Shown piece after piece: positions 8,994 to 21,609 of a stretch of DNA of 64,000 nt; the stretch's first letter is position 1, and each line of letters starts with the position of its first letter. Under the pieces are notes generated by a model. It ran no database searches. It was not told the origin of the DNA and saw only the letters and a program-made list of their open reading frames with translations. Where the stretch lies: assembly GCA_039940335.1 (NCBI GenBank), contig JBDVGW010000008.1. One strand, given 5' to 3'. Source of the stretch: Marinomonas sp. Its GTDB lineage: Bacteria; Pseudomonadota; Gammaproteobacteria; Pseudomonadales; Marinomonadaceae. Position numbers and translations under genes: made by a program.

Positions 8994-11171
8994 TTAGCGC
9001 TGCAGAGCTTGCTTAACAATCACTCGGTGAGCATGTAATAAAGGTTCTGTGTAGCCATTTGGTTGGCTCACTCCTTTAAAGATCAAATCATGAGCGGCCT
9101 TAAATGCTTGGCTTTTTTGCCCATCGCTGATTAATGGCTGGTAGCCCTTAAGGTGACAATTCTGTTCATCCACCACTTTTGCCATACGTTCCAACGTTGA
9201 CTCCACTAAAGCGGCAGAACAAATGCTGTGATGCAACCAATTGGCAATGTGCTGGCTAGATATTCTTAGGGTTGCGCGATCTTCCATCAGCCCAACATGA
9301 TTAATGTCAGGTACTTTCGAACAGCCCACGCCCTCTTCTACCCAGCGCACCACATAGCCTAATAATCCCTGAACGTTATTATCGATTTCTTTTTGTATTA
9401 CTCTTTCTGACAACGTCAGGTTTTCTGGAATAAGTGGTAGCGTTAGTAAGTCATCAAACTTAGCTTTAGGACGTTGCTTAATACGCTCTTGCTCGGCAAA
9501 TACATCCACTTGGTGATAATGCAAAGCGTGCAAAGTGGCTGCTGTTGGGGAGGGTACCCAAGCGGTATTCGCTCCAGCTTTTGGGTGAGCTTTTTTGGCT
9601 GTCATCATAGCGGCCATTTCGTCTGGCATGGCCCACATGCCCTTACCAATTTGTGCTTTACCCTGTAAACCACACTGCAAGCCAATATCCACATTGCGAT
9701 TTTCGTATGCCTGTATCCAAGGTTGATTCTTAATTTGATCTTTTGGTAAAAAGGCTCCCGCCTGCATTCCCGTGTGAATTTCATCCCCCGTTCTGTCCAA
9801 GAAGCCTGTGTTAATGAACACCACTCGCTCTTTAGCCGCGCGTATACATTCTTTTAAATTCAACGTCGTGCGGCGCTCTTCATCCATGATGCCGATTTTC
9901 AGAGTATTCGGTGCTAGCCCCAGCATTTGTTCCACACGTGAAAACAGCTGACAGCTAAACGCTACTTCTTCTGGGCCATGCATTTTGGGTTTTACGATAT
10001 AAATGCTGCCCGTACGGCTATTGCGAATACCGTTGTCTTTCTTCAAATCCAGTGCCGCGATCAGTGCAGTAATGGCCGCATCAATGATGCCTTCCGGAGC
10101 AAAACGCCCTTGAGCGTCCTGCATTAAGTCCGACTCCATTAGGTGACCTACATTACGAACCAAGAGCAATGAGCGGCCATGTAGGCGATACTCCTGCCCG
10201 TCAAGATCCGTAAAAAGGCGATCTTTGTTTAGACGACGAGTATGGGTTTTACCGTCTTTTTCAAAGCTCGTTTGCAGGTTTCCCTGCATGAGCCCTAGCC
10301 AATTTCGGTACACTTCTACCTTGTCTTCAGCATCGACTGCGGCAATAGAGTCTTCGCAATCCATAATGGTGCTTAAGGCAGATTCGAGCAGAATGTCATT
10401 CACATTGGCTTTATCTTGGGCACCATTCTTACCGTTCGGATCCAGCTGAATTTCTACATGCAAGCCATTGTTTTTCAATAAAATAGATTCCGGAGCACTG
10501 CGCTGACCATTCACTGCCACCAACTGACAAGGCTGCTGCAAACCCGCTTTCGAACCATCGGCAAAGAAAGCCAATAGGTGGTGGTAATACACCACGTAAC
10601 TGGTCACATCCTGATGGGAGCCATTATCAAGTGGAAAAATTTCGTCCAAGAAAGCTTTGGCCTGCTGAACCACCATTTGTTCACGAGCAGCGTGATCAGC
10701 GGTGTTCGCACTTTCCACTAATTTAGGCGCCACTGCATCTGTGCCATAAAAAGCATCGTACAAGCTTCCCCAACGGGCATTGGCAGCGTTTAAAGCAAAA
10801 CGAGCATTCTTTAAAGGCACCACTAATTGAGGTCCGGCTAGGGTGGCAATTTCTGCATCCACATGCTCGGTGGTGATGGCAAAATCTTCCCCCTCTGGTA
10901 CTAGGTAACCAATTTCGCGTAAAAACTCTTGGTAGCTGGGTTGGTCGATAGGTTGCTCAGGATGGCATAAATGCCATTCATCAATCTGCGCTTGCAGGGA
11001 TTGGCGAGTCACCAAAAGCTGACGATTAATCGGCGCTAAGTCCGCCACTAGCTGCTGCAAATCCTGCCAAAATTTATCGGCATTTAAGTCATGTAGAGGC
11101 AATACTTCTTCATTGATGAAGTGGTAGAACCCTTGGTCTATTAGGTTATTTTTATGTAAGGGCATATTCAT
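8994..11171 (-). CDS. glcB: Malate synthase G
   Basis: 'NARFALNAANARWGSLYDA', 'NTGFLDRTGDEIH', 'MEDRATLRISSQ'; start moved to ATG 11171, which has an AGGA RBS. Confidence 0.96.
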   Translation of the reverse strand: MNMPLHKNNLIDQGFYHFINEEVLPLHDLNADKFWQDLQQLVADLAPINRQLLVTRQSLQAQIDEWHLCHPEQPIDQPSYQEFLREIGYLVPEGEDFAITTEHVDAEIATLAGPQLVVPLKNARFALNAANARWGSLYDAFYGTDAVAPKLVESANTADHAAREQMVVQQAKAFLDEIFPLDNGSHQDVTSYVVYYHHLLAFFADGSKAGLQQPCQLVAVNGQRSAPESILLKNNGLHVEIQLDPNGKNGAQDKANVNDILLESALSTIMDCEDSIAAVDAEDKVEVYRNWLGLMQGNLQTSFEKDGKTHTRRLNKDRLFTDLDGQEYRLHGRSLLLVRNVGHLMESDLMQDAQGRFAPEGIIDAAITALIAALDLKKDNGIRNSRTGSIYIVKPKMHGPEEVAFSCQLFSRVEQMLGLAPNTLKIGIMDEERRTTLNLKECIRAAKERVVFINTGFLDRTGDEIHTGMQAGAFLPKDQIKNQPWIQAYENRNVDIGLQCGLQGKAQIGKGMWAMPDEMAAMMTAKKAHPKAGANTAWVPSPTAATLHALHYHQVDVFAEQERIKQRPKAKFDDLLTLPLIPENLTLSERVIQKEIDNNVQGLLGYVVRWVEEGVGCSKVPDINHVGLMEDRATLRISSQHIANWLHHSICSAALVESTLERMAKVVDEQNCHLKGYQPLISDGQKSQAFKAAHDLIFKGVSQPNGYTEPLLHAHRVIVKQALQR

Positions 11172-11260
11172 CGCATAGATCCTTTTCAAACATTGATACG
11201 GTCAAAGCAAAATTAAAAGCACTCTGTGTTGCTTGATTTTTAGTCTATGACAAACTAGAT

Positions 11261-11300
11261 TGAAATTTCACAATAAGAATTACACAGTGTAAATTTTACA
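11261..11300. promoter_or_regulatory. Cluster of palindromes in the glcB/regulator divergent region (candidate operators)
   Basis: tgaaatttca (11261-11270), ttacac-a-gtgtaa (11280-11292), tgtaaa-t-tttaca (11288-11300). Confidence 0.5.
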
Positions 11301-11303
11301 AAA

Positions 11304-12827
11304 ATGAAAAATAAAAATAGTTTAATTCGCAAAGCCCATTTCCTTGGCACCAAGATACGCAACCTGCGTAAACGCAACCATTTGACCATGGAAGACCTGT
11401 CCGCTCGCTGCATCAAAGTCGACCCAGAATGCGCCCCTTCAGTGTCATACTTATCCATGATAGAGAGGGGAAAGCGTGTCCCCAGTGAAGAGGTATTAGA
11501 AGTGATTGCCAGTGTCTTTCAAAAAGACCTCGACTGGTTTTTAGACGATATTCCAGAAGAGGAGGCCATCAAGCCATCGAAAGGTTCTGGAGGGGGTATC
11601 AACGGCATGGCGCTAGAACCCAATTTTCTGTTTTCTAACGACATATTACAAATCGCCATTCCTGAAATGCTGTCTCAAACTGGCACCAGTGGCCGTCAAT
11701 TTGCCCACCTTTTGATTCGTGCACACCAAGAACATCATCAAAACCATTTCCCGGATTTAGAAAGAGCCGCCGAGGATGTTGGGCAAAAGCGTTTGCCGCT
11801 AAGTTTGGAAGAAATCATTGCCTTAACTCAACACCATGGCTTAACCATCAAGTGGTTTCGTAAAACGCCACAAAGCATACGTGACAGCATGGGAATTGAT
11901 GATTCACAGGTTGTCACATCCTTTTTTGAGCCCCCCAACAGCCTTTACATCAACCAAATAATGAAGTCTCAGCCTGTGCGATTAAAGTACAACTTAGCGG
12001 TACATATCGGTCACTGTGTCCTACATGACAAGGACACAATGCGTAATGTATTGGTGACAGGTCGTGATGAAATATCGCCCTTACAAGAGCAAAATTTGTT
12101 ACCTCAAGGTACAGGTATGGACGCCCAAGATGTGTTGCGGGCGTGGCGAGATTTTGAGTGTAGCTTCTTTGCAGGCGCCCTACTTTGCCCAAAAGTGCCC
12201 TTTCGACAAATGCTTGATCGTAACGGCTATGAGATCAACACTGCGAAACTGGCAGGGGTATCAGCTTCAGTCGCCATGCGCCGTATGACCGCAGTATCAC
12301 CCTACCCCCATTGGCATTACTTTGATGCTTACGCTCCGGGCAAGCTCAAGGCGGTGTACCGTGGCAACGGTATTCCGTTGCCTTGGGGGAATATGCGCAT
12401 GGTGGAAGACCCTTGCCAGCACTGGGCTGTCTTTCGAATGATTAATGCTCCCCTTACTGGCACATCGTCGCAAATTTCGATTTTGAATGTTGGTGACGAA
12501 CCAAGAATTTACGCATGTGAATCCATCAAGGTGGCAGATTTAGCCGACAACAGCCATGTTTTGTGCTCTGGCATTGATCTTAACCCGGCCATTGAAGCCC
12601 AAGGCAAAAGCGCACAAGAGATTGCTCAGCAATTAAAACAGGCCTGTGTTGGGAACGGTGGCTCAGCCCCCATCCCAAAAGCCATAAAGAAAGACCTTAT
12701 GAGTGTGGCAAAGATTCTCAACATTAATTGGGTGGAAAGAGGAATAGAAAACGATGCTAGAACCATATGCTCTCGTGGAGCGGTTTGTCCACGTACACCG
12801 AGTTGCTATCGCCCCTGCTATCCCTAA
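11304..12827 (+). CDS. XRE-HTH + IrrE-like domain regulator, RamB/ScfR-like (DUF3612-type)
   Basis: N-terminal XRE HTH 'LGTKIRNLRKRNHLT…SYLSMIERGKRVPS'; 'ECSFFAGALLCP'; divergent from glcB-aceA. Confidence 0.8.
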   Translation: MKNKNSLIRKAHFLGTKIRNLRKRNHLTMEDLSARCIKVDPECAPSVSYLSMIERGKRVPSEEVLEVIASVFQKDLDWFLDDIPEEEAIKPSKGSGGGINGMALEPNFLFSNDILQIAIPEMLSQTGTSGRQFAHLLIRAHQEHHQNHFPDLERAAEDVGQKRLPLSLEEIIALTQHHGLTIKWFRKTPQSIRDSMGIDDSQVVTSFFEPPNSLYINQIMKSQPVRLKYNLAVHIGHCVLHDKDTMRNVLVTGRDEISPLQEQNLLPQGTGMDAQDVLRAWRDFECSFFAGALLCPKVPFRQMLDRNGYEINTAKLAGVSASVAMRRMTAVSPYPHWHYFDAYAPGKLKAVYRGNGIPLPWGNMRMVEDPCQHWAVFRMINAPLTGTSSQISILNVGDEPRIYACESIKVADLADNSHVLCSGIDLNPAIEAQGKSAQEIAQQLKQACVGNGGSAPIPKAIKKDLMSVAKILNINWVERGIENDARTICSRGAVCPRTPSCYRPCYP

Positions 12828-13060: not shown

Positions 13061-13651
13061 TTATTCACGAAAAGTAAAAAGTAAAATGTCTTTCATTTTA
13101 CGCTCTACTTCGACGTCGGCGCTGTCAAAATCTGCTTTACTTAATTGCGGCAAGAATGGCTGCACAGCACGAAGTTTTTTAATGGCTTGAGGGTCAGCCG
13201 TCATCACAATGGCGGCATAATTAAAGGCGTCGTAATAGGCAAAGGCTTGCTCTTCAAGGGCTTGTAAATAGGACTCTAACGTTTCTTCACCAAAGACTTG
13301 TTTGATCGCGGTTACTGCACCATACACAGCCACACCTTCGCTTAGCACATTACTTTTAGGGGTATCAAAGCCCATAGGATACAAGCCACGTACCATTTCT
13401 TGAATAACGTCCGCTAGCAACATAACATCATTGGAAAAACTGCGCGCGGGGATCTGTAAGCGGTAGTGATAGGGTTGTTCTTTACTGGTAAACACGACCT
13501 CTGGCTTGGCGATATCTTGATTGACTTCAAAACCACCAAACTCTGCTTGTGGCGCAGGCTCACCGAACAAAAAAGTCACCGCAGGTAACCAAGCTTCGCG
13601 CAGCTTTTCAAGTTTTGCTATCTGTATTGCTTGCAGATCAGACACAGGCAT
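13061..13651 (-). CDS. Hypothetical protein with degenerate zincin-like motifs
   Basis: AAGGA RBS; 'LADVIQEMVRGLYP…NVLSEGVAVY'. Confidence 0.7.
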   Translation of the reverse strand: MPVSDLQAIQIAKLEKLREAWLPAVTFLFGEPAPQAEFGGFEVNQDIAKPEVVFTSKEQPYHYRLQIPARSFSNDVMLLADVIQEMVRGLYPMGFDTPKSNVLSEGVAVYGAVTAIKQVFGEETLESYLQALEEQAFAYYDAFNYAAIVMTADPQAIKKLRAVQPFLPQLSKADFDSADVEVERKMKDILLFTFRE

Positions 13652-13745
13652 ATCCTTCTAAAATCAGTTACAAAGCTATTAGGCTGGGCAACAAGCTTGC
13701 ACATGCCTATAAACGGCGCAAACCTTAGCATATTTGAGGATATTG

Positions 13746-13761
13746 AGCAGTAGTAGTGCCA
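13746..13761 (-). promoter_or_regulatory. Candidate sigma-54 (-24/-12) promoter for the 13061-13651 gene
   Basis: Minus strand TGGCAC-TACTA-CTGCT, with GG-N10-GC spacing intact. Confidence 0.35.
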
Positions 13762-13772
13762 TCCCTAATACT

Positions 13773-13821
13773 AAAAAACCCACCTTCATTGACCTAAATC
13801 CGAGTCAATGAAGGTGGGTTT
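13773..13821 (-). terminator. Terminator of the TRAP/amidase operon
   Basis: Perfect 18-bp stem aaacccaccttcattgac / gtcaatgaaggtgggttt, U-tract on the minus strand. Confidence 0.8.
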
Positions 13822-13850
13822 GAGTAACTAAGCACTTAACTCTGTTTACT

Positions 13851-15113
13851 CTAGGCTAACGCTTTCTCCACTAACTTTGCCGCTGCTAGCAGCGCTTCAT
13901 CACTACCATTAGCGCCTGTTAACATCACGCCAATATGGTGTTCCTGATGCTCAAAAGGCAATGAGACGCTGCAAGCGTCTAACACATTGGCAAGGGTGGT
14001 ATTACGTAAACACAACAAATTAATACGGTCGTAATCCTCATCCTTGGTTAGATCCGAAAGCTTAGGAGGTAATATCGCCACAGTCGGCAAAAGCAGCTGA
14101 ACACCAGATTCTTCCTGCTGATAACGCTCAATTAACGTTTGGCGTTGCTGACAAGTTTGAGCAAAAGTTTGCTCATCTAGGCTATCCGCCCGTCGCAGTC
14201 TTGAAGCCACTCTAGGGTCTAACTGAGCTAAATCCAAAGCAAATGTTTGCTGATAAAACTCACGCGCTTCAAAAGCCGAAAACTGCCATACAGGAAGGGC
14301 TTTATAAGCTTCCAACAAACTTACCGGACGCTCTTCCACTACCACTCCTGGTATTTGGCGTAATATTGCAAGCGCGGCACGAAAACCTTCTTCAACCGCT
14401 GTATCTAGGTTGTCCAAACCAAAATTGGTCGGCACCACAAAGTGTGCTTGCTGAGCGGCCGCAGCCGTTTTCTCTGTACCAGATAAAACCTGCCAAGCCG
14501 CTTCACAGTCCGCCACGCTTTTCGCAATGGGGCCGATACTGTCGAGTGTGGTCGAAAGAGGGAGCGCCCCTTCAGTAGAGACACTTTGCTGAGACGGTTT
14601 AAAACCGGTCAACCCGCAAAACGCCGCAGGGATTCGCAACGAGCCACCCGTATCACTACCAAGCGCAATATCGGCTATACCGAGTGCCACAGACACAGCG
14701 CCACCACTGGTGGAACCGCCCGCAATACAACCTGGGTACAACGGACTTTGTGGTGTACCATAATGAGGGTTCATACCCAAACCAGAATAAGCCAACTCAG
14801 TCATGTTAGTATGACCTAGTAAGTAAGCGCCCGCTTCGCGTAAAAGCCTTACCGATTCGGCATCTTCTTTGGCTGGTGTATTATCCTTTAAAAAGACCGA
14901 ACCTGCTCGGGTCACATACCCTTGAACATCAAACAGGTCTTTAATAGTCACAATGGCCTTGCTCAATACACCATCAGAAATAGCACTCATATCTTGCCCA
15001 GCAAAACGCTGGGTTAAAATGACATCATCATTTTTGTCCAGCAACTCTTGGCTCTGGGTGAGCTGTTGCTCAAAATTCCTATCCTGCCAAGCTAATTCAG
15101 GGTGGCGCGACAT
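13851..15113 (-). CDS. Amidase-signature (AS) family amidase
   Basis: Lys-cisSer-Ser triad motifs 'TIKDLFDV', 'GGSTSGGA', 'GSDTGGSLRIPAAFCG'; start moved to ATG 15113 (AGGAG RBS). Confidence 0.9.
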   Translation of the reverse strand: MSRHPELAWQDRNFEQQLTQSQELLDKNDDVILTQRFAGQDMSAISDGVLSKAIVTIKDLFDVQGYVTRAGSVFLKDNTPAKEDAESVRLLREAGAYLLGHTNMTELAYSGLGMNPHYGTPQSPLYPGCIAGGSTSGGAVSVALGIADIALGSDTGGSLRIPAAFCGLTGFKPSQQSVSTEGALPLSTTLDSIGPIAKSVADCEAAWQVLSGTEKTAAAAQQAHFVVPTNFGLDNLDTAVEEGFRAALAILRQIPGVVVEERPVSLLEAYKALPVWQFSAFEAREFYQQTFALDLAQLDPRVASRLRRADSLDEQTFAQTCQQRQTLIERYQQEESGVQLLLPTVAILPPKLSDLTKDEDYDRINLLCLRNTTLANVLDACSVSLPFEHQEHHIGVMLTGANGSDEALLAAAKLVEKALA

Positions 15114-15138
15114 TCTTACACTCCTGTCCAAAAATCCA

Positions 15139-15792
15139 TTATTTAACCGCAGGTAACTCACGAGTTTGGTAGTCGGCTTGTATGCTTCGATTTAGCACAG
15201 GATCATGCAGAGCCATGCGGAATTTTGGCGTGTTGCGCACCCCACCAATGGCCGCAAAGGTGCCACACAACATAGCACTACCATTGTCTAATTTGGCTTT
15301 TTCAATAAGTTCGTTAAGAGGGCGAATAGCGGCCAATTTACCGCTCTGATAAAGTGTCCAACCTTCCCCTTCATCTACCCAAGATTGCATCTCAATCTGA
15401 TCTAAGTGGCCTTCTACCTCTGCCAAAGGCCATAACTGCGTTGCCACAGGCTTTGGACAAACCTGCTTTGAAAAGGCGACAGAATGAGCTTCCAATTCAC
15501 GGTCCGTATGATCCGAACCTAGCCCTAACCAAAAGCTGTCTTCTGCTTTAATGATCAAGGGTTCAACCTCACCAGAGGAATCACCACCAACCACTTCAAC
15601 CATAGGTTGCTGAGTCAGCAACAAGTTCGAAGCGCGGTAATATAAGGGCACAGTAGAAGGTGGAGCCACACCCAACTCGGCCAGCTCATCAATATGCTCT
15701 TGTACTGCATGCTGATCTCGTGCCGTCCAACCTGCGACTACAAGGTGATTGATTAAAAATTCTTTTGCTACACCATTAATTGTAAAAAGCAT
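15139..15792 (-). CDS. DUF2848-family protein (FAH-like fold)
   Basis: 'AGWTARD…HIDELAELGV', 'SSGEVEP', 'LGSDHTDRELE', 'FSKQVCPKP'. Confidence 0.8.
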   Translation of the reverse strand: MLFTINGVAKEFLINHLVVAGWTARDQHAVQEHIDELAELGVAPPSTVPLYYRASNLLLTQQPMVEVVGGDSSGEVEPLIIKAEDSFWLGLGSDHTDRELEAHSVAFSKQVCPKPVATQLWPLAEVEGHLDQIEMQSWVDEGEGWTLYQSGKLAAIRPLNELIEKAKLDNGSAMLCGTFAAIGGVRNTPKFRMALHDPVLNRSIQADYQTRELPAVK

Positions 15793-15800
15793 ACTCTTCC

Positions 15801-17081
15801 TTAAAAATTATCAGGTAAATACAAGGCTAAATTTGGAAAGGCGATCAATAGGAACACCATCAATAACATGATCAAAACATAAGGAATACTGCCGAGAATA
15901 ACGTCCATCATGTTGCCATTCTTACGGGCGGAGTTCACCACATAAAGATTGAGCCCGACCGGTGGTGTGATCAGTGCCATTTCCACCAAGATGATCATCA
16001 AAATACCAAACCAAATCGTGTCGTAGCCCATTTGTGCAATGATCGGCACCACAATCGGAATGGTGGCCACCATCAAGGATAAGGTTTCAATAAAGAAGCC
16101 CAATACTATGTAAGTTAGGATGATCACCAACAAGGTAGCCGTAGCACTCAGGCCAAGCCCTTGTAATAAATCCTGCAGGGCTCTGCCCACACCCGCTGCG
16201 GTAAGTGCAAAGTTCAAGACATAAGCACCAATTACCACCAGCATGATCATTGCGGTGATTTTGACCGTACCTATCAGGCTACTAATGAGCATTTCTTTCG
16301 ACAGAGCTTGATAAGCCAGTGCGATGATTAAAGAGATCAATACCCCAATCGCCGCGGCCTCAGTCGGGGTTGCCCAACCCATGTAGATCGAACCCACCAC
16401 ACTGATAAATAGAAATAAAATCGGCGTTAAGGATTTCAGCGCGATGATTTTTTCACGCCAACTACTGTGCTGCTTTGGCCCCCCTAATTTCGGGTAAACA
16501 ACACACAACACTATGGTGGCTAACATAAACAATAGAGCCATCATGATGCCCGGCACAATACCCGCTAAAAACAGCTTAGGTATGGAGCTTTCGGTCAAAA
16601 AACCGTAGACAATCAAGTTGATTGAAGGGGGAATCAAAATACCCAGTGTGCCGCCTGCCGCAATGGAACCGGTGAATAATCTAGGGTCATAGCCAAGCTT
16701 CTCTGCTTGCGGAGTTGCCACGGTAGCGACCGTTGCAGCCGTCGCGACTGACGAGCCTGAGGTAGCTGAAAACATCGTCGCTGTGGCGATATTGGCATGA
16801 ATCAAGCCACCCGGCAGCCAAGATACCCAAGCATTCAACGCGCTGTAAGTACGCTGTGCTACGCCACTGCGCAGTAAAATTTCGCCGATCAAGACAAAAA
16901 ATGGCACCGCGATCAAAGTCGGATTATTAGACGATGACCAAACCACCTGCCCCAAACCTCGCATCAGAGGAAAAGGACTAAAAAAACTATCAACGCCAAA
17001 GGCCAATAGAAACAACACTATGCCAACAGGGATGGATAACGCTAGTAAGCCAAGCAGTCCCATTGAAGTAAATAAGATCAT
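15801..17081 (-). CDS. dctM: TRAP transporter large permease
   Basis: 'AVPFFVLIGEIL', 'SGSSVATAAT', 'GGTLGILIPPSI', 'ITPPVGLNL'; real start ATG 17081 overlaps the dctQ stop (ATGA). Confidence 0.92.
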   Translation of the reverse strand: MILFTSMGLLGLLALSIPVGIVLFLLAFGVDSFFSPFPLMRGLGQVVWSSSNNPTLIAVPFFVLIGEILLRSGVAQRTYSALNAWVSWLPGGLIHANIATATMFSATSGSSVATAATVATVATPQAEKLGYDPRLFTGSIAAGGTLGILIPPSINLIVYGFLTESSIPKLFLAGIVPGIMMALLFMLATIVLCVVYPKLGGPKQHSSWREKIIALKSLTPILFLFISVVGSIYMGWATPTEAAAIGVLISLIIALAYQALSKEMLISSLIGTVKITAMIMLVVIGAYVLNFALTAAGVGRALQDLLQGLGLSATATLLVIILTYIVLGFFIETLSLMVATIPIVVPIIAQMGYDTIWFGILMIILVEMALITPPVGLNLYVVNSARKNGNMMDVILGSIPYVLIMLLMVFLLIAFPNLALYLPDNF

Positions 17082-17611
17082 TGCTCGTCTCCTGTACCTA
17101 TGGTTTCGTCCACTATCTGATGACGACCCTGTAACACTAATAACACTGAGAGGATCAATAACACAGAGGACGATAGGGCGAACCAAATCCAACCTGCGAA
17201 CCAAATACTTTGCGGAATATACAAAGGAACCTCTAACGCGGTATTGGATAAAGCCCCACTCTTAAGAGTTTTAGTCAATACCGGCCAAGCTCGATACGCT
17301 ACATAAATTGCCACATAAGAAAGCGACGCAAGGGCAATTAAGTCATATAGGGAGCGCATTTTATCGCCACCTTTTTGACGCAGTAAATCAATGCGTACAT
17401 GAGCTTTAGCCGTTAAAGCAAAACAGACACCCCAGCTGGTCACTGCGGCCATTACATACCCAGAAATTTCTTCGGAGCCACTAAAGGCGACACCAAACTC
17501 TCTCAATACGATATCTACAAGAATGATGGTAATGCAGGCTAGCAAAGCTAGACCTGCAGTGACCGCCACTCCATTATTTATTCTTTTCAGAATAGAAATA
17601 ATGCGAGTCAT
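17078..17611 (-). CDS. dctQ: TRAP transporter small permease
   Basis: Four TM segments; 'SEEISGY', 'AHVRIDLL'. Confidence 0.88.
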   Translation of the reverse strand: MTRIISILKRINNGVAVTAGLALLACITIILVDIVLREFGVAFSGSEEISGYVMAAVTSWGVCFALTAKAHVRIDLLRQKGGDKMRSLYDLIALASLSYVAIYVAYRAWPVLTKTLKSGALSNTALEVPLYIPQSIWFAGWIWFALSSSVLLILSVLLVLQGRHQIVDETIGTGDEQ

Positions 17612-17622
17612 TTGAATTAGCC

Positions 17623-18681
17623 TTATTGAGCCGAGATTTGTATGCCAGCGGCTTTACCGACGCTCATGTTCCAACGGTTTGTCCATTCTTCCCCTGCACG
17701 ATCTGCCCATTCAGGTAGCACCTTGCTGCTCAGAATATCTTTCGCTTTGGCTACGTCTTGCGCCGCAGGTTCAACCAGCACTAGGTTACGCTTGTCTCCT
17801 CTGCTACAAACGCCATTCCCTGTCAGACAAGCAATATCTTCTTCCAATGCACCTTGTGCCGCCGCCCAAGCAGGCGCCTCAAACTCTTCTGCTACAGAAG
17901 TAGCAATAAGCTCTTGATCAGCACTACTTAAATCATTCCACTTGTCTAAATTGATCGCAGTAACCACAGGATCCCAGCCACCTAACGGCAAAGTCATAAG
18001 ATGAGTAGTGACTTCCCACCAACCTGCACTGTAACCAGAACCTGCACCGGTTACGGCACAATCAATTACCCCACGCTGAAGCGCTCCCGGGACTTCACCA
18101 AAGGCGATATTGACACTTTGCGCATCTAAGGCTTCAAGGAATTTAGCCGTCATGCGGCCTGACGCGCGGATTTTTAAACCCGCTAAATCATCAAGGTTAC
18201 TCACTGGAGCATTACAGAATACAACCTGTGGTGGGTAAGGCACGATGGCCAACACTTTAGCGTTGAAGGTATCTTGATAAATCGATTCAATCATTGGGCG
18301 CGCTGCCTCAACAAGCGTCTTAGCTTCGGCGGCTGTGGTCGCAAGTAATGGCACATCGAGACCTTCCAAGGCTGGGGCATCGGCAACAGCATAATCCGCT
18401 ACTGTCATACCGATGTCGAACACGCCATCCCCTAACATACGGAAAACATCGCCGCCGCCAATCCCCATTTGATCATGGGTGGTCATCGCGACTTCAAACT
18501 CACCATTAGTTTTTGCAGGAATGGTTTGATTCCAAAAGGGCTGCTCAAATTGCTTATGCAGAGGCAAACTACTCCAGCTACCTACCACCGATAGCATTTC
18601 GCTAGCGCTAGCCTGAGTAGACAATGTGGCCGCCAAAACAGAAGTGGCTAGAAAACTTCTCGAATTCATTTTAGTCATCAT
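17623..18681 (-). CDS. dctP: TRAP transporter substrate-binding protein
   Basis: Signal peptide; 'DLAGLKIRASG' with the conserved Arg; 'GEVPGALQRGVID'. Confidence 0.88.
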   Translation of the reverse strand: MMTKMNSRSFLATSVLAATLSTQASASEMLSVVGSWSSLPLHKQFEQPFWNQTIPAKTNGEFEVAMTTHDQMGIGGGDVFRMLGDGVFDIGMTVADYAVADAPALEGLDVPLLATTAAEAKTLVEAARPMIESIYQDTFNAKVLAIVPYPPQVVFCNAPVSNLDDLAGLKIRASGRMTAKFLEALDAQSVNIAFGEVPGALQRGVIDCAVTGAGSGYSAGWWEVTTHLMTLPLGGWDPVVTAINLDKWNDLSSADQELIATSVAEEFEAPAWAAAQGALEEDIACLTGNGVCSRGDKRNLVLVEPAAQDVAKAKDILSSKVLPEWADRAGEEWTNRWNMSVGKAAGIQISAQ

Positions 18682-18817
18682 GTTCTCTTCCTGTAATTTT
18701 CAGTTTGTTTAATGTCTCAACTCTCACCCGATGTCATTATTAGCCCCTATTTTTAAGGCTTGAATTCAGTGTCGAATTTAAACATGATAATGTCAATTCG
18801 TAATATTTTATCAATTG

Positions 18818-18836
18818 TGATCATAATTTTTGATCA
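18818..18836. promoter_or_regulatory. LysR-type operator (T-N11-A dyad)
   Basis: TGATCA-N7-TGATCA perfect dyad in the dctP/LysR divergent region. Confidence 0.6.
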
Positions 18837-18874
18837 TGCTAATTCCTGTTCACATGGTCAAGAGGGCAAATACA

Positions 18875-19756
18875 ATGAATTTTGATCAACTCAAGACCTT
18901 TTTGTGGGTCGCAAAATTAGGCGGTGTTAGACGTGCCGCCAGTCAGATGAACCTCTCTCAACCGGCCATTTCCGCTCGCATCAGTGCGCTGGAAGATGAA
19001 CTTGGAGTAACCCTTTTCGAACGCCAAAAAACCGGTGTCGCCCTCACCAAAGAAGGTCTCCTGCTACGCGCTCACGCTGAAAAAATAGAATCCTACATGG
19101 AACAGCTAAAAGACGAGCTCACCCCAAGTGATGAGGTAAAAGGGGTCATTCGTATCGGTGTGGCAGAAACCATTGCCCAGTCTTGGTTGTCTGATTTTCT
19201 AAGTGCCTTGCGAAAACTCTACCCCAAATTAGTGGTAGAACTTTCCGTGGATATCACGGTGAATTTAAAAGACCAATTGTTATCTCACCATTTGGATTTG
19301 GCTTTTCTAATGGGGCCTTTGGCAGAAGGAAATGTTGAAAATGTGGTACTACCCACCTTTAAATTAGCTTGGTTCTGTAGTGTTAATGAAGACTCACCTC
19401 ACCCCTCTACATCCCCTATCATGTCCTTTTCACGCCTCTCTCGCCCTTACCAAAATCTCATCTCGGAGCTCATGCACAGATACGGTTCCGTGGGTCAAAT
19501 TTTCCCCTCCACATCCTTGTCCACCAGCTTCGAAATGGTGGCGTCGGGCATCGGCATTGGCGCACTCCCGACTCAGTTAGCACAGCGCTTTATCAAAGAT
19601 AAACGCATCAAAACTTTTAGCCCGGGCTGGCGACCAAAAGACTTGCTCTTTACCGCTTCGTACCTTAACGACCCAAGGTCGGAAATTGTCCATAAAAGTG
19701 CCTTGTTGGCCGCAGAAATCGCCCAACAATATGCAAAACAAAAAGATGTTATTTGA
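18875..19756 (+). CDS. LysR-family regulator
   Basis: 'MNFDQLKTF…AASQMNLSQPAISARISALEDELGVTLFER'; start moved to ATG 18875. Confidence 0.92.
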   Translation: MNFDQLKTFLWVAKLGGVRRAASQMNLSQPAISARISALEDELGVTLFERQKTGVALTKEGLLLRAHAEKIESYMEQLKDELTPSDEVKGVIRIGVAETIAQSWLSDFLSALRKLYPKLVVELSVDITVNLKDQLLSHHLDLAFLMGPLAEGNVENVVLPTFKLAWFCSVNEDSPHPSTSPIMSFSRLSRPYQNLISELMHRYGSVGQIFPSTSLSTSFEMVASGIGIGALPTQLAQRFIKDKRIKTFSPGWRPKDLLFTASYLNDPRSEIVHKSALLAAEIAQQYAKQKDVI

Positions 19757-19758
19757 TG

Positions 19759-20163
19759 TCATGCCCCCAGCATAGGCAGATGCTTGCGGTGTTTATAGGT
19801 CAACGCCAACTGAATACAGTGAGCCAGTTCTGGACGTTTAAAATCATAGTCTAGAGGCATCACCAAGGCTCGATTGCCCTCATAAGTAAACGCCTCGCTA
19901 TACAATTCTTGATAGGTTGCCACCAGCTTAGTTTGACAATGCACATAGAGGTAGAGGCGATTACCATGGTCACTCTGCCAGTCAAGTCGGATACTCGTAC
20001 CGGTTTTTACCCCATAGCTTAACTGCCCCCATTTAAGAGATTCTTCAACTGGCCCACACTGATTTTCTTCAGCAACTTGCCGTATCAAGTCCCTAAGCTG
20101 AGACAACTTTTCAGTGACTGATACTGGATAACTGGCCATTTTTTCAGATATTGTGTGCATCAT
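19759..20163 (-). CDS. DUF1801-family protein
   Basis: 'LRDLIRQVA…EESLKWGQLSY…YVHCQTKLV…GNRAL'; likely start ATG 20163 or 20160. Confidence 0.72.
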   Translation of the reverse strand: MMHTISEKMASYPVSVTEKLSQLRDLIRQVAEENQCGPVEESLKWGQLSYGVKTGTSIRLDWQSDHGNRLYLYVHCQTKLVATYQELYSEAFTYEGNRALVMPLDYDFKRPELAHCIQLALTYKHRKHLPMLGA

Positions 20164-20325: not shown

Positions 20326-21609
20326 ATGAAAGTAAAGACGTTAGTTTCCGCAATTGCTTTATCCGGTGCAACTCTAGTTGCCCTACCATCTTTCGCTGCT
20401 GATACCATTAAAGTTGGGGTACTACACTCCCTATCTGGCACCATGGCGATCTCTGAAACCACGCTAAAAGACACGGTCTTGATGATGGTGGAAGAGCAAA
20501 ACAAAAAAGGTGGATTGTTAGGCAAACAGCTTGAAGCCGTTGTGGTTGACCCTGCATCTAACTGGCCGCTGTTCGCTGAAAAAGGTCGTGAGTTGCTAAC
20601 CCAAGATAAAGTAGATGTTATTTTCGGTAGCTGGACATCGGTTTCTCGTAAATCTGTACTGCCGGTTCTTGAAGAGTTGAACGGCTTGATGTTTTACCCA
20701 GTACAGTATGAAGGTGAAGAGTCTTCTAAAAACGTTTTTTATACTGGCGCTGCGCCAAACCAACAAGCGATTCCTGCTGTTGATTACCTAATGAATGATC
20801 TAGGTGTAGAGCGTTTTGTACTTGCCGGCACTGACTATGTTTACCCACGTACCACCAACAAAATCCTTGAAGCTTACTTAAAAGCGAAAGGTGTGGCGGG
20901 CGAAGATATCATGATCAACTACACACCATTTGGTCATTCAGACTGGCAATCGATTGTTTCTGATGTGAAGAAGTTTGGTAGTGAAGGTAAGAAAACTGCG
21001 GTTGTTTCCACTATTAATGGTGATGCCAACGTACCTTTCTACAAAGAATTGGGTAACCAAGGTATCTCTTCTGAAGATATTCCAGTGGTTGCCTTCTCGG
21101 TTGGTGAAGAAGAACTTTCTGGCTTAGACACCACCCCTCTTGTTGGTCACCTTGCTGCTTGGAACTACTTCCAAAGTGTCGAAAGCGATGCTAACGAGGA
21201 GTTCATCACTCAATGGAAGGCTTACACCAAAAACCCTGATCGTGTAACCAATGACCCAATGGAAGCGACTTACATCGGTTTCAACATGTGGGTAAATGCA
21301 GTGAAAGATGCCGGCACCACTGATGTCGATGCCGTTGAACAAGCCATGATTGGTCAAGAAACGCCTAACCTGACTGGCGGCATCGCCGTGATGAACAAAA
21401 ACCACCATTTGAGCAAACCAGTGCTGATTGGTGAAATCCAAGACGACGGCCAATTTGAAGTCGTTTGGGAAACCGACGGTGTTGTACCAGGTGATGCTTG
21501 GTCTGACTTCTTGCCAGGTTCGAAAGACCTTATCTCTGATTGGACAGCGCCTATTAAGTGCGGTAACTACAATATTAAAACCGAAGCTTGTTCAGGCCAG
21601 AACTACTAA
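20326..21609 (+). CDS. urtA: Urea ABC transporter substrate-binding protein
   Basis: 'IKVGVLHSLSGTMAISE', 'DPASNWPLFAE', 'WTSVSRK', 'YPVQYEG'. Confidence 0.96.
   Translation: MKVKTLVSAIALSGATLVALPSFAADTIKVGVLHSLSGTMAISETTLKDTVLMMVEEQNKKGGLLGKQLEAVVVDPASNWPLFAEKGRELLTQDKVDVIFGSWTSVSRKSVLPVLEELNGLMFYPVQYEGEESSKNVFYTGAAPNQQAIPAVDYLMNDLGVERFVLAGTDYVYPRTTNKILEAYLKAKGVAGEDIMINYTPFGHSDWQSIVSDVKKFGSEGKKTAVVSTINGDANVPFYKELGNQGISSEDIPVVAFSVGEEELSGLDTTPLVGHLAAWNYFQSVESDANEEFITQWKAYTKNPDRVTNDPMEATYIGFNMWVNAVKDAGTTDVDAVEQAMIGQETPNLTGGIAVMNKNHHLSKPVLIGEIQDDGQFEVVWETDGVVPGDAWSDFLPGSKDLISDWTAPIKCGNYNIKTEACSGQNY

Follow-up and report, generated by a model that had tools for sequence, protein, structure and literature searches.

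What does a protein of the DUF2848 family do when its gene lies between those for a TRAP (tripartite ATP-independent periplasmic) transporter and an amidase? The question is raised by a unit at positions 13851 to 19756 of a 64,000-nucleotide stretch of Marinomonas sp. DNA (assembly GCA_039940335.1, contig JBDVGW010000008.1), referred to in its full length as the window. On the minus strand, dctP, dctQ, dctM, the DUF2848 gene, and the amidase gene follow each other head to tail, and a LysR gene lies divergent from them; all were found, with Pfam and NCBIfam domain matches, where a prediction made earlier from the sequence alone (here, the original prediction) had placed them. The operon type is ordinary, that of a LysR-controlled TRAP catabolic operon with an enzyme of the fumarylacetoacetate hydrolase (FAH) superfamily and an amidase-signature (AS) amidase. 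What is new are the DUF2848 enzyme family, its partner set, and its likely substrate class, none of which we found described previously. We consider it likely that DUF2848 and the amidase work together as a deamidative module that the TRAP transporter supplies. The substrate class is most likely a 5-oxoproline-type lactam, with 2-hydroxy-5-oxoproline, the cyclic form of 2-oxoglutaramate, as the specific candidate.

The DUF2848 protein (15139 to 15792, minus strand; 217 amino acids; PF11010, E value 4e-74) is 98% identical to its counterpart in M. dokdonensis, a species to which the Marinomonas of the window is therefore close, and is a candidate metal-dependent FAH-fold enzyme. That the family has no assigned function still stands: a full-text literature search for DUF2848, PF11010, and DUF1445, which was not exhaustive, returned nothing relevant (8.3 million texts for the first two terms), and NCBIfam (June 2026) holds no model for DUF2848. 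Judged by an AlphaFold2 model built with 26 homologs (pLDDT, 91.4), DUF2848 adopts the FAH fold. A Foldseek search of this model against the PDB gave 12 FAH-family matches (probability, 1.00; E values, 5e-9 to 1e-6; TM scores, 0.60 to 0.70), with the next match at an E value of 0.08; the best FAH neighbors were 3v77, Cg1458, KdaD (2-keto-3-deoxy-D-arabinonate dehydratase), HpcE, and related isomerases. An hhalign comparison of 109 DUF2848 with nine FAH sequences (84% probability; E value, 7.6e-6; 162 columns) likewise recovered the likeness to FAH enzymes. The open reading frames (ORFs) in the FAH profile came from the retrieved loci, and one that was checked against the PDB (L033) matched solved FAH enzymes. 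Deeper profiles were required, as a shallow hhalign profile of DUF2848 against FAH was not significant (E value, 0.44) and neither single-sequence (phmmer) nor profile (hmmsearch) searches of PDB sequences with DUF2848 found an FAH chain. Pfam assigns the protein to PF11010 only and not to PF01557; DUF2848 is, on the evidence of the model, a separate sequence family within the FAH fold.

The motifs in which the original prediction had seen an FAH metal site are invariant in DUF2848, namely, GEVE (E75 and E77), GSDHTDR (D94 and R98), and SK (K109), and hhalign pairs them with the FAH motifs ExE, D-x-[ST]-x-R, and GK. In FAHD1 terms, H33/E36, E75/E77, D94, R98, and K109 map onto H30/E33, E71/E73, D102, R106, and K123, which places H33-x-x-E36 at the lid His/Glu dyad, E75-x-E77 and D94 at the metal triad, and K109 at the catalytic Lys; G177-T178 aligns with the FAH TGTP motif. 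The roles of the FAHD1 residues H30/E33, E71, D102, R106, K123, and Q109 have been described (PMC8398924). With the metal triad, Lys, and His/Glu dyad aligned and invariant, DUF2848 carries the FAH catalytic set and is probably a metal-dependent enzyme, with H33/E36, E75/E77/D94, R98, E101, K109, and T178 as candidate catalytic residues. While DUF2848 resembles FAHD1/Cg1458, HpcE, and KdaD in fold, dyad, triad, Arg, and Lys, it differs from FAHD1/Cg1458-type enzymes in a longer insert before the His/Glu helix, in a Glu for Q109, and in CGT in place of TGTP, and its partners in this subfamily are amidases and lactam enzymes rather than aromatic ring-cleavage genes.

This resemblance bears on the order of steps that had been proposed originally, in which an amide-bearing carboxylate is deamidated first and the product is then processed by DUF2848. 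In the form considered here, deamidation would leave a 2-oxo or 2,4-dioxo diacid for DUF2848 to decarboxylate, hydrolyze, or isomerize. Examples would be the conversion of 2-oxosuccinamate via oxaloacetate to pyruvate and CO2 or a direct acylpyruvase-type cleavage of "carbamoylpyruvate." An oxaloacetate decarboxylase, Cg1458, is among the best structural matches, the counterparts of the catalytic residues are found in FAHD1, which has oxaloacetate decarboxylase and acylpyruvase activity, and the FAH decarboxylase/hydrolase positions are all conserved in DUF2848. Against this, FAHD1 Q109, required for decarboxylation geometry, is a Glu in DUF2848, and we regard the deamidation-first order as unlikely, also in view of the gene neighborhoods considered below.

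The partner enzyme in the window is an AS amidase (13851 to 15113, minus strand; PF01425, E value 7.5e-65) of 420 amino acids from an ATG or 436 from the GTG at 15161. The ATG at 15113 has a ribosome-binding site in front of it and is favored by the N termini of orthologs. Besides the PF01425 domain, the protein has the family's Lys-cisSer-Ser triad, K74/S150/S174 in the numbering of the 436-residue ORF, which is invariant in 45/45 homologs, as anticipated. Its best NCBIfam match, PRK07056, scores 401.8 bits, below the cutoff of 447, which leaves it outside that subfamily. The amidases beside DUF2848 have GGSTSGG where the closest solved AS amidase, PDB 2dc0, has GGSSGGS, and the second-position variation of GGSTSGG among the homologs is Thr in 33 and Ser in 12 of the 45.

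We also weighed the possibility that the amidase mainly serves as an ATP-independent 5-oxoprolinase. We rejected this role because the equilibrium constant of about 0.035 favors the lactam, because the one known enzyme is periplasmic while the N terminus of the window amidase ORF does not obviously resemble a signal sequence, and because high cytoplasmic glutamate would presumably drive the reaction backwards.

How general is the association of DUF2848 with amidases? An exhaustive profile search (E values up to 1e-3) yielded 1,663 DUF2848 clusters at 50% identity, and the family is common in marine alpha- and gammaproteobacteria. The orthologous set, with one genome per species, consists of 80 loci with DUF2848 at 50 to 73% identity, from Marinomonas, Psychromonas, Thalassospira, Paracoccus, many roseobacters, Stappiaceae, and others. 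Distant representatives are 34 to 46% identical to the window protein, and a further 80 metagenomic loci of this branch (L092 to L171), 79 of them informative, were scored for neighbors within about 2.5 kb of DUF2848, which brings the distant loci to about 90 and all loci compared to about 170. Partners were counted by tblastn and ORF clustering with Pfam checks, using the best 80 hits of each scan and our own ORF calling; all neighborhood counts are lower bounds, uncorrected for phylogeny, the metagenomic ones also because many contigs are just 1 to 3 kb long.

Among the orthologous loci, 48/80 carry an AS amidase of one of two lineages, which share about 37% identity and each stand directly after DUF2848. 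Distant AS amidases, one of them in the PRK07056 group, and members of the nitrilase superfamily bring the recruitment of an amidase beside DUF2848 to at least four separate settings, which argues that DUF2848 is coupled to deamidation. We consider this apparent cooperation of DUF2848 with a deamidation step our strongest result; the pair is a conserved module. An AS amidase is also found in cluster D11, and a CN_hydrolase directly adjoins DUF2848 in cluster D2 (24 loci), as it does in L086 and L089, where the CN_hydrolase gene comes first. These adjoining CN_hydrolases score best, below the equivalog cutoffs, against the models for deaminated-glutathione amidase (Nit1) and PRK10438, which we take to mark the omega-amidase branch that acts on 2-oxoglutaramate-type amides. 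In the metagenomic set, a CN_hydrolase or AS amidase was present in at least 29/79 informative loci. Four of these loci (L131, L158, L161, and L171) unite GntR, CN_hydrolase, DUF2848, and DctP(QM) genes, with DUF2848 first in L131, and by their gene content appear to hold the functional trio of the window with a nonhomologous amidase and a different subfamily of the TRAP solute-binding protein (SBP).

Other distant loci vary the theme. The gene order is Cupin_7, HpaB::DUF2848, alpha/beta-hydrolase, amidase, and major facilitator superfamily (MFS) transporter in L081; flavin reductase, an unassigned gene, DUF2848, Cupin_7, and amidase in L087; YbdL-type aminotransferase (NCBIfam, 443 bits; cutoff, 420), DUF2848, Cupin_7, and MFS transporter in L088; and PreA-like gene, Cupin_7, amidase (PRK07056, 589.6 bits), and DUF2848 in L090, with molybdenum hydroxylase genes nearby. 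Two kinds of fusion occur in the family, HpaB::DUF2848 and DUF2390::DUF2848; the latter, whose DUF2390 part is itself uncharacterized, was found in P0132 and P0137 and is followed by an amidase in L082 (104 to 1733). The Cupin_7 protein, of about 125 amino acids, is the third recurrent neighbor of DUF2848 in the distant branch (L081, L087, L088, L090, and 22/79 informative metagenomic loci); its gene is absent from the window and, except for L018, from the marine loci.

The distant loci are also the source of the case for a different substrate, a half-amide from the breakdown of N-heteroaromatics or cyclic imides (of the maleamate, glutaramate, or 2-oxoadipamate type), with DUF2848 as an isomerase, hydratase, or hydrolase of the ring-cleavage pathway and the amidase for removal of the nitrogen. 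GntR regulators, molybdenum hydroxylase subunits, PreA-like reductases, and HpaB-type oxygenases recur in the metagenomic loci, flavin adenine dinucleotide (FAD) monooxygenases join them elsewhere, and L083/84 combine an ATP-binding cassette transporter, an FAD monooxygenase, a glyoxalase-type dioxygenase, an alpha/beta-hydrolase, RidA, and a canonical FAH with DUF2848. Such oxidoreductases are, however, absent from the window and the 80 orthologous loci, where DUF2848 is accompanied by hydrolases or lyases that belong to glutamate/5-oxoproline chemistry. This scenario may therefore describe other subfamilies, and for the unit in the window we find it quite unlikely.

In the orthologous loci, DctPQM and DUF2848 form the conserved core: DctM, DctQ, and DctP are encoded in 77, 76, and 75 of the 80 loci, respectively, with DctP 55 to 75% identical (outlier L053, 31%) and DctM 66 to 89% identical. 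The co-occurrence of DUF2848 with transporter and amidase genes in other genomes, on which the original prediction depended, is thus evident, in the distant loci as well. The amidase partnership itself proved recurrent and not universal, with 5-oxoprolinase genes often in its place. A D-Glu_cyclase gene (PF07286) is present in about 66/80 loci, mostly directly upstream of dctP; PxpA/B/C genes are present in 21/80, an OplAH-like 5-oxoprolinase gene in 5/80, and an M24 peptidase-family gene in 6/80. The generic amide-bearing substrate proposed earlier is not what this partner set suggests: with the cyclase, PxpABC, and OplAH, a pyroglutamate-type C5 lactam is indicated. A search of the amidase-less marine loci for a substitute amidase gave just one CN_hydrolase (L035) and one cupin (L018).

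The transporter would fit such a substrate. DctP (17623 to 18681, minus strand; PF03480, E value 2e-23; NF037995, 83.8 bits against a cutoff of 50) carries a Sec signal (ASA/SE), and its R172, in the motif LKIRASG, is invariant in 74/74 orthologs and aligns with the Arg of KMRG in PDB 5iga/5i5p, in agreement with the carboxylate-binding Arg named by the original prediction. Its nearest solved relatives, at an E value of 1e-16 at best, include 2pfy/2pfz, pyroglutamate binders of Bordetella, where the TRAP SBPs DctP6 and DctP7 bind 5-oxoproline (pyroglutamate). DctQ, the small membrane subunit (17078 to 17611, minus strand; PF04290, E value 3.9e-16), and DctM, the large permease (15801 to 17081, minus strand; PF06808, E value 6e-86; TIGR00786, 313 bits against a cutoff of 268), complete a predicted DctP-type TRAP transporter.

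A pathway for the salvage of D/L-5-oxoproline and D-glutamate would draw on the same findings. In that scenario, the transporter imports either hand of pyroglutamate or D-glutamate, the cyclase interconverts D-glutamate and 5-oxo-D-proline, DUF2848 racemizes 5-oxoproline by a two-base mechanism with help from a metal, and PxpABC or OplAH opens 5-oxo-L-proline to L-glutamate, with the amidase as an accessory, for example, for D-glutamine or isoglutamine. The core would then be the cyclase, TRAP transporter, and DUF2848 (about 66/80 orthologous loci), to which Pxp or OplAH genes are added in 25 loci and nothing else in 12. The binding of 5-oxoproline by the Bordetella proteins and the value of L-pyroglutamate as a marine substrate speak for it as well. 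The logic parallels the racemization of N-acyl-amino acids. Yet it would leave unexplained why, throughout the family, DUF2848 is paired with amidases from three unrelated lineages, and it would not account for the window itself, which has an amidase and, by tblastn, none of the D-Glu cyclase, PxpABC, and OplAH genes in its 64 kb. Furthermore, no FAH-fold racemase is known, and the 2-oxo or enol group chelated by FAH sites is missing from 5-oxoproline. Taken together, we judge the salvage scenario improbable.

The explanation that we favor is a mechanism in which DUF2848 and the amidase act in turn on a 5-oxoproline-type lactam. In this scenario, the operon, perhaps activated through LysR by the substrate, would import a small carboxylate by DctPQM, convert it in two cytoplasmic steps, and release ammonium. 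The carboxylate of the lactam would be bound by Arg172 of DctP for uptake by the TRAP system. In DUF2848, a divalent metal coordinated by E75, E77, and D94 would then be chelated by the 2-carboxylate and 2-oxygen of the substrate, and with the H33/E36 dyad and K109 as acid/base, the ring would be opened or tautomerized at the C2-N bond, yielding open-chain 2-oxoglutaramate. Finally, the amidase would hydrolyze the terminal carboxamide to give 2-oxoglutarate and NH4+. The identity of the substrate, the reaction of DUF2848, and the order of the steps are what we infer beyond the sequence data, and in its specific form, the 2-oxoglutaramate-lactam mechanism is plausible and tentative.

Three lines of evidence lead to this proposal. 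First, the partner enzymes of the orthologs all handle the five-carbon glutamate/5-oxoproline skeleton. Second, the distant partners comprise omega-amidase-like enzymes, a glutamine-transaminase-like aminotransferase, and oxygenases that would make lactams from N-heterocyclic carboxylates. Third, an FAH active site holds the carboxylate of a 2-oxo or enol acid on its metal and catalyzes proton transfer and the addition of water. Since the C5 partners, the omega-amidase-like distant partners, and FAH chemistry all fit, 2-oxoglutaramate is our candidate. In water, 99.7% of this compound is the lactam 2-hydroxy-5-oxoproline, which closely resembles pyroglutamate; omega-amidase accepts only the open-chain form (0.3%), the ring opens slowly at a pH of about 7.2, and the fate of the lactam has been called "seldom explored." It is possible, if doubtful, that DUF2848 is the missing enzyme that opens this lactam, or a close enamide or hemiaminal analog, to 2-oxoglutaramate.

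With respect to the order of steps, the LysR-linked TRAP uptake and catabolic unit of the original prediction stands, whereas its sequence of deamidation followed by the FAH-fold reaction found no supporting data. The neighboring CN_hydrolases of the omega-amidase branch and the aminotransferase would also yield 2-oxosuccinamate from asparagine, and the amidase gene precedes that of DUF2848 in many distant loci. In the window and all orthologs, however, DUF2848 precedes the amidase; a C5 lactam is what the partners D-Glu-cyclase, PxpABC, and OplAH suggest; and the deamidation products of C4 and C5 2-oxo-amides, oxaloacetate and 2-oxoglutarate, are central metabolites for which a dedicated enzyme would be needless. 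Moreover, 2-oxosuccinamate is reported to be unstable and to dimerize, which makes it a poor transport substrate. The HpaB fusion and the HpaB and flavin-reductase neighbors would fit an action of DUF2848 on a freshly hydroxylated N-heterocycle or lactam, ahead of the amidase, and the fusion and neighbor evidence appears to fit an FAH-fold step first and an amidase second at least as well as the reverse.

Several observations weigh against the lactam mechanism. The reactions that we know of for the FAH fold are C-C hydrolysis, decarboxylation, tautomerization, and (de)hydration, so that the opening of a hemiaminal ring would be, to our knowledge, unprecedented, and an invariant Glu (E101) replaces FAHD1 Q109. 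The mechanism gives no clear role to the D-Glu-cyclase, which is commoner than the amidase among orthologs. No amidase is nearby in 30/77 TRAP-linked loci, 16 of which have Pxp or OplAH genes and 14 neither, and genes for an amidase and for a 5-oxoprolinase exclude each other only in part (odds ratio, 0.20; Fisher P value, 0.002, phylogeny uncorrected), a purely descriptive ratio, given loci that are not independent of each other. With DctP of the window, the nearest solved SBPs share just about 25% identity. In the distant branch, the TRAP SBPs come from another subfamily (26% identity), and the branches may thus not share their substrates, and the contig with HpaB::DUF2848 has many split genes, so that this fusion may be a frameshift artifact.

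How does the unit compare with known systems? Close to it in logic is the glutamine transaminase/omega-amidase pathway ("glutaminase II," GTwA, with Nit2- or YafV-type enzymes), in which an omega-amide of a 2-oxo acid is converted to a 2-oxo diacid and ammonium and whose substrate exists as a 5-oxoproline-like lactam. Distant DUF2848 loci carry CN_hydrolases of the Nit1/PRK10438 branch and, in one case, the YbdL-type aminotransferase. The amidase of the window, in contrast, is an unrelated enzyme of the AS family rather than a CN_hydrolase, and thus not a Nit2/YafV omega-amidase, no transaminase is found in the window, and the unit has a TRAP importer and an FAH-fold enzyme in addition. By analogy, the unit would work like an omega-amidase pathway without being a member of that group. 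We know of no ring-opening enzyme in the GTwA pathway.

The 5-oxoproline systems (PxpABC or OplAH with a transporter and the Bordetella DctP6/DctP7 systems) share with the window a distantly related SBP, and orthologous loci carry PxpABC, OplAH, and D-Glu-cyclase genes in the same operon; the window has DUF2848 and an AS amidase instead. As PxpABC, OplAH, and the cyclase are lacking there, it is not a canonical ATP-dependent 5-oxoprolinase system. With LysR-controlled TRAP catabolic operons, the unit shares a divergent LysR gene with a T-N11-A box, dctPQM genes followed by enzymes, and a terminal hairpin, whereas its enzyme pair and presumed substrate match no described TRAP system that we found.

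For a domain with no function to its name, these results leave a handful of reactions that can be assayed. If the proposal is correct, lactam opening would fill a stated gap in the omega-amidase literature, where ring opening limits flux at physiological pH, and DUF2848 and the amidase would provide an ATP-independent route from a glutamine-derived lactam to 2-oxoglutarate and ammonium. The known pool of marine dissolved organic nitrogen would gain one more substrate. A dedicated TRAP importer would further imply that marine and host-associated bacteria exchange the lactam among themselves as a currency of nitrogen and carbon. Should the lactam idea be wrong, the partner set (D-Glu cyclase, 5-oxoprolinases, cupin, and amidases) would still narrow the search to pyroglutamate-like or half-amide compounds.

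The LysR-family regulator is encoded at 18875 to 19756 on the plus strand (HTH_1, E value 1.7e-21; LysR_substrate, E value 3.8e-24). Mechanical ORF calling starts it at the TTG at 18830, with the helix-turn-helix (HTH) domain beginning at ORF residue 18; the real start is almost certainly the ATG at 18875 (N terminus, MNFDQLKTF), which fits the HTH domain and the orthologs. Orthologs with 70 to 79% identity are likewise divergent from dctP in the Marinomonas and Psychromonas loci L001 to L005. The perfect TGATCA-N7-TGATCA dyad noted earlier, TGATCATAATTTTTGATCA, lies at 18818 to 18836, where the TTG start would fall inside it. It occurs once in the 64-kb window and in 0/100 shuffles and is a candidate LysR recognition site of the T-N11-A type, which, together with the domains and the divergence, is consistent with a LysR-regulated operon. 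Its core, GTGATC...TATCAC, is kept in three other Marinomonas loci (L002, L004, and L005) and partly in Psychromonas (L001). The perfect dyad was rejected as the conserved operator because just a TGAT-N11-ATCA core is conserved in the intergenic alignment, of which the dyad in the window appears to be a local elaboration.

About 22 nucleotides from this core, on the dctP side, stands a TTGACA-TTATCA element (18785 to 18796, minus strand), whose TTGAC-TTATC columns are invariant in the intergenic alignment of five species; possibly it serves as a -35 hexamer on which a second LysR half-site, the activation site, is superimposed. An ACTGAA block, kept in three other Marinomonas loci and partly in one Psychromonas locus, is the third conserved element. 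As far as the alignment goes, these elements would match the usual LysR layout of a recognition site and an activation site near the -35 region.

Short spacers suggest that the genes from dctP to the amidase form one transcript. The dctP-dctQ spacer is 11 nucleotides, dctQ and dctM overlap in an ATGA with the true ATG of dctM at 17081, dctM and DUF2848 are 8 nucleotides apart, and the amidase follows DUF2848 after 25 nucleotides from its ATG at 15113 (or overlaps it by 23 nucleotides from the GTG at 15161). An intrinsic terminator at 13776 to 13821 (minus strand), with a stem of 19 pairs (8 of them GC), an 8-nucleotide loop, and a T run, closes the operon; the hairpin had been described as 18 bp long. 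It is the sole long hairpin of the unit, and no strong internal terminator was seen within it.

The limits of the unit run from LysR to this terminator, as the flanks in the window (DUF1801, a 196-amino-acid ORF, and urtA) are not conserved among the 80 related loci. The adjacency to urt and ure genes, taken originally as a pointer to organic-nitrogen scavenging, was dropped as evidence: urtA, which starts at 20326, is near the DUF2848 unit in just 1/80 related loci. The 196-amino-acid ORF (13061 to 13651), beyond the terminator, matched neither Pfam nor NCBIfam and lacks homologs in these loci. In L002 and L004 (M. lutimaris and M. ushuaiensis), where the window has DUF1801 and urtA, LysR heads a second operon (-8700 to -3080) with D-Glu-cyclase, a second TRAP transporter, and PxpA, divergent from dctPQM-DUF2848-amidase. 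In L003 (Marinomonas sp. GJ51-6; about -2890 to +1939 of DUF2848), dctP and the amidase gene are each split into two ORFs, and DUF2848, dctQ, and dctM are intact; from these ORFs, the unit seems to be decaying.

Public runs X1 to X24, which share a species label, carry the sequence of 13851 to 18900 of the window, with a word depth of about 17x and a 94-kb contig in X1. The label is probably that of a eukaryotic host and the bacterium an associate, since other runs under it comprise 10 to 60 Gb with PacBio, Nanopore, and transcriptome sequencing (RNA-seq) data. The one RNA run with this label had 0 reads on 13600 to 19900. Farther out in the window, within 8994 to 12827, a malate synthase G gene (8994 to 11189, minus strand) lies divergent from the gene of a 507-amino-acid regulator with HTH_3, an M78/IrrE-like region, DUF3612, and a Cys-rich C-terminal tail, which we take to resemble the ScfR/RamB-type regulators of acetate and glyoxylate-shunt genes.

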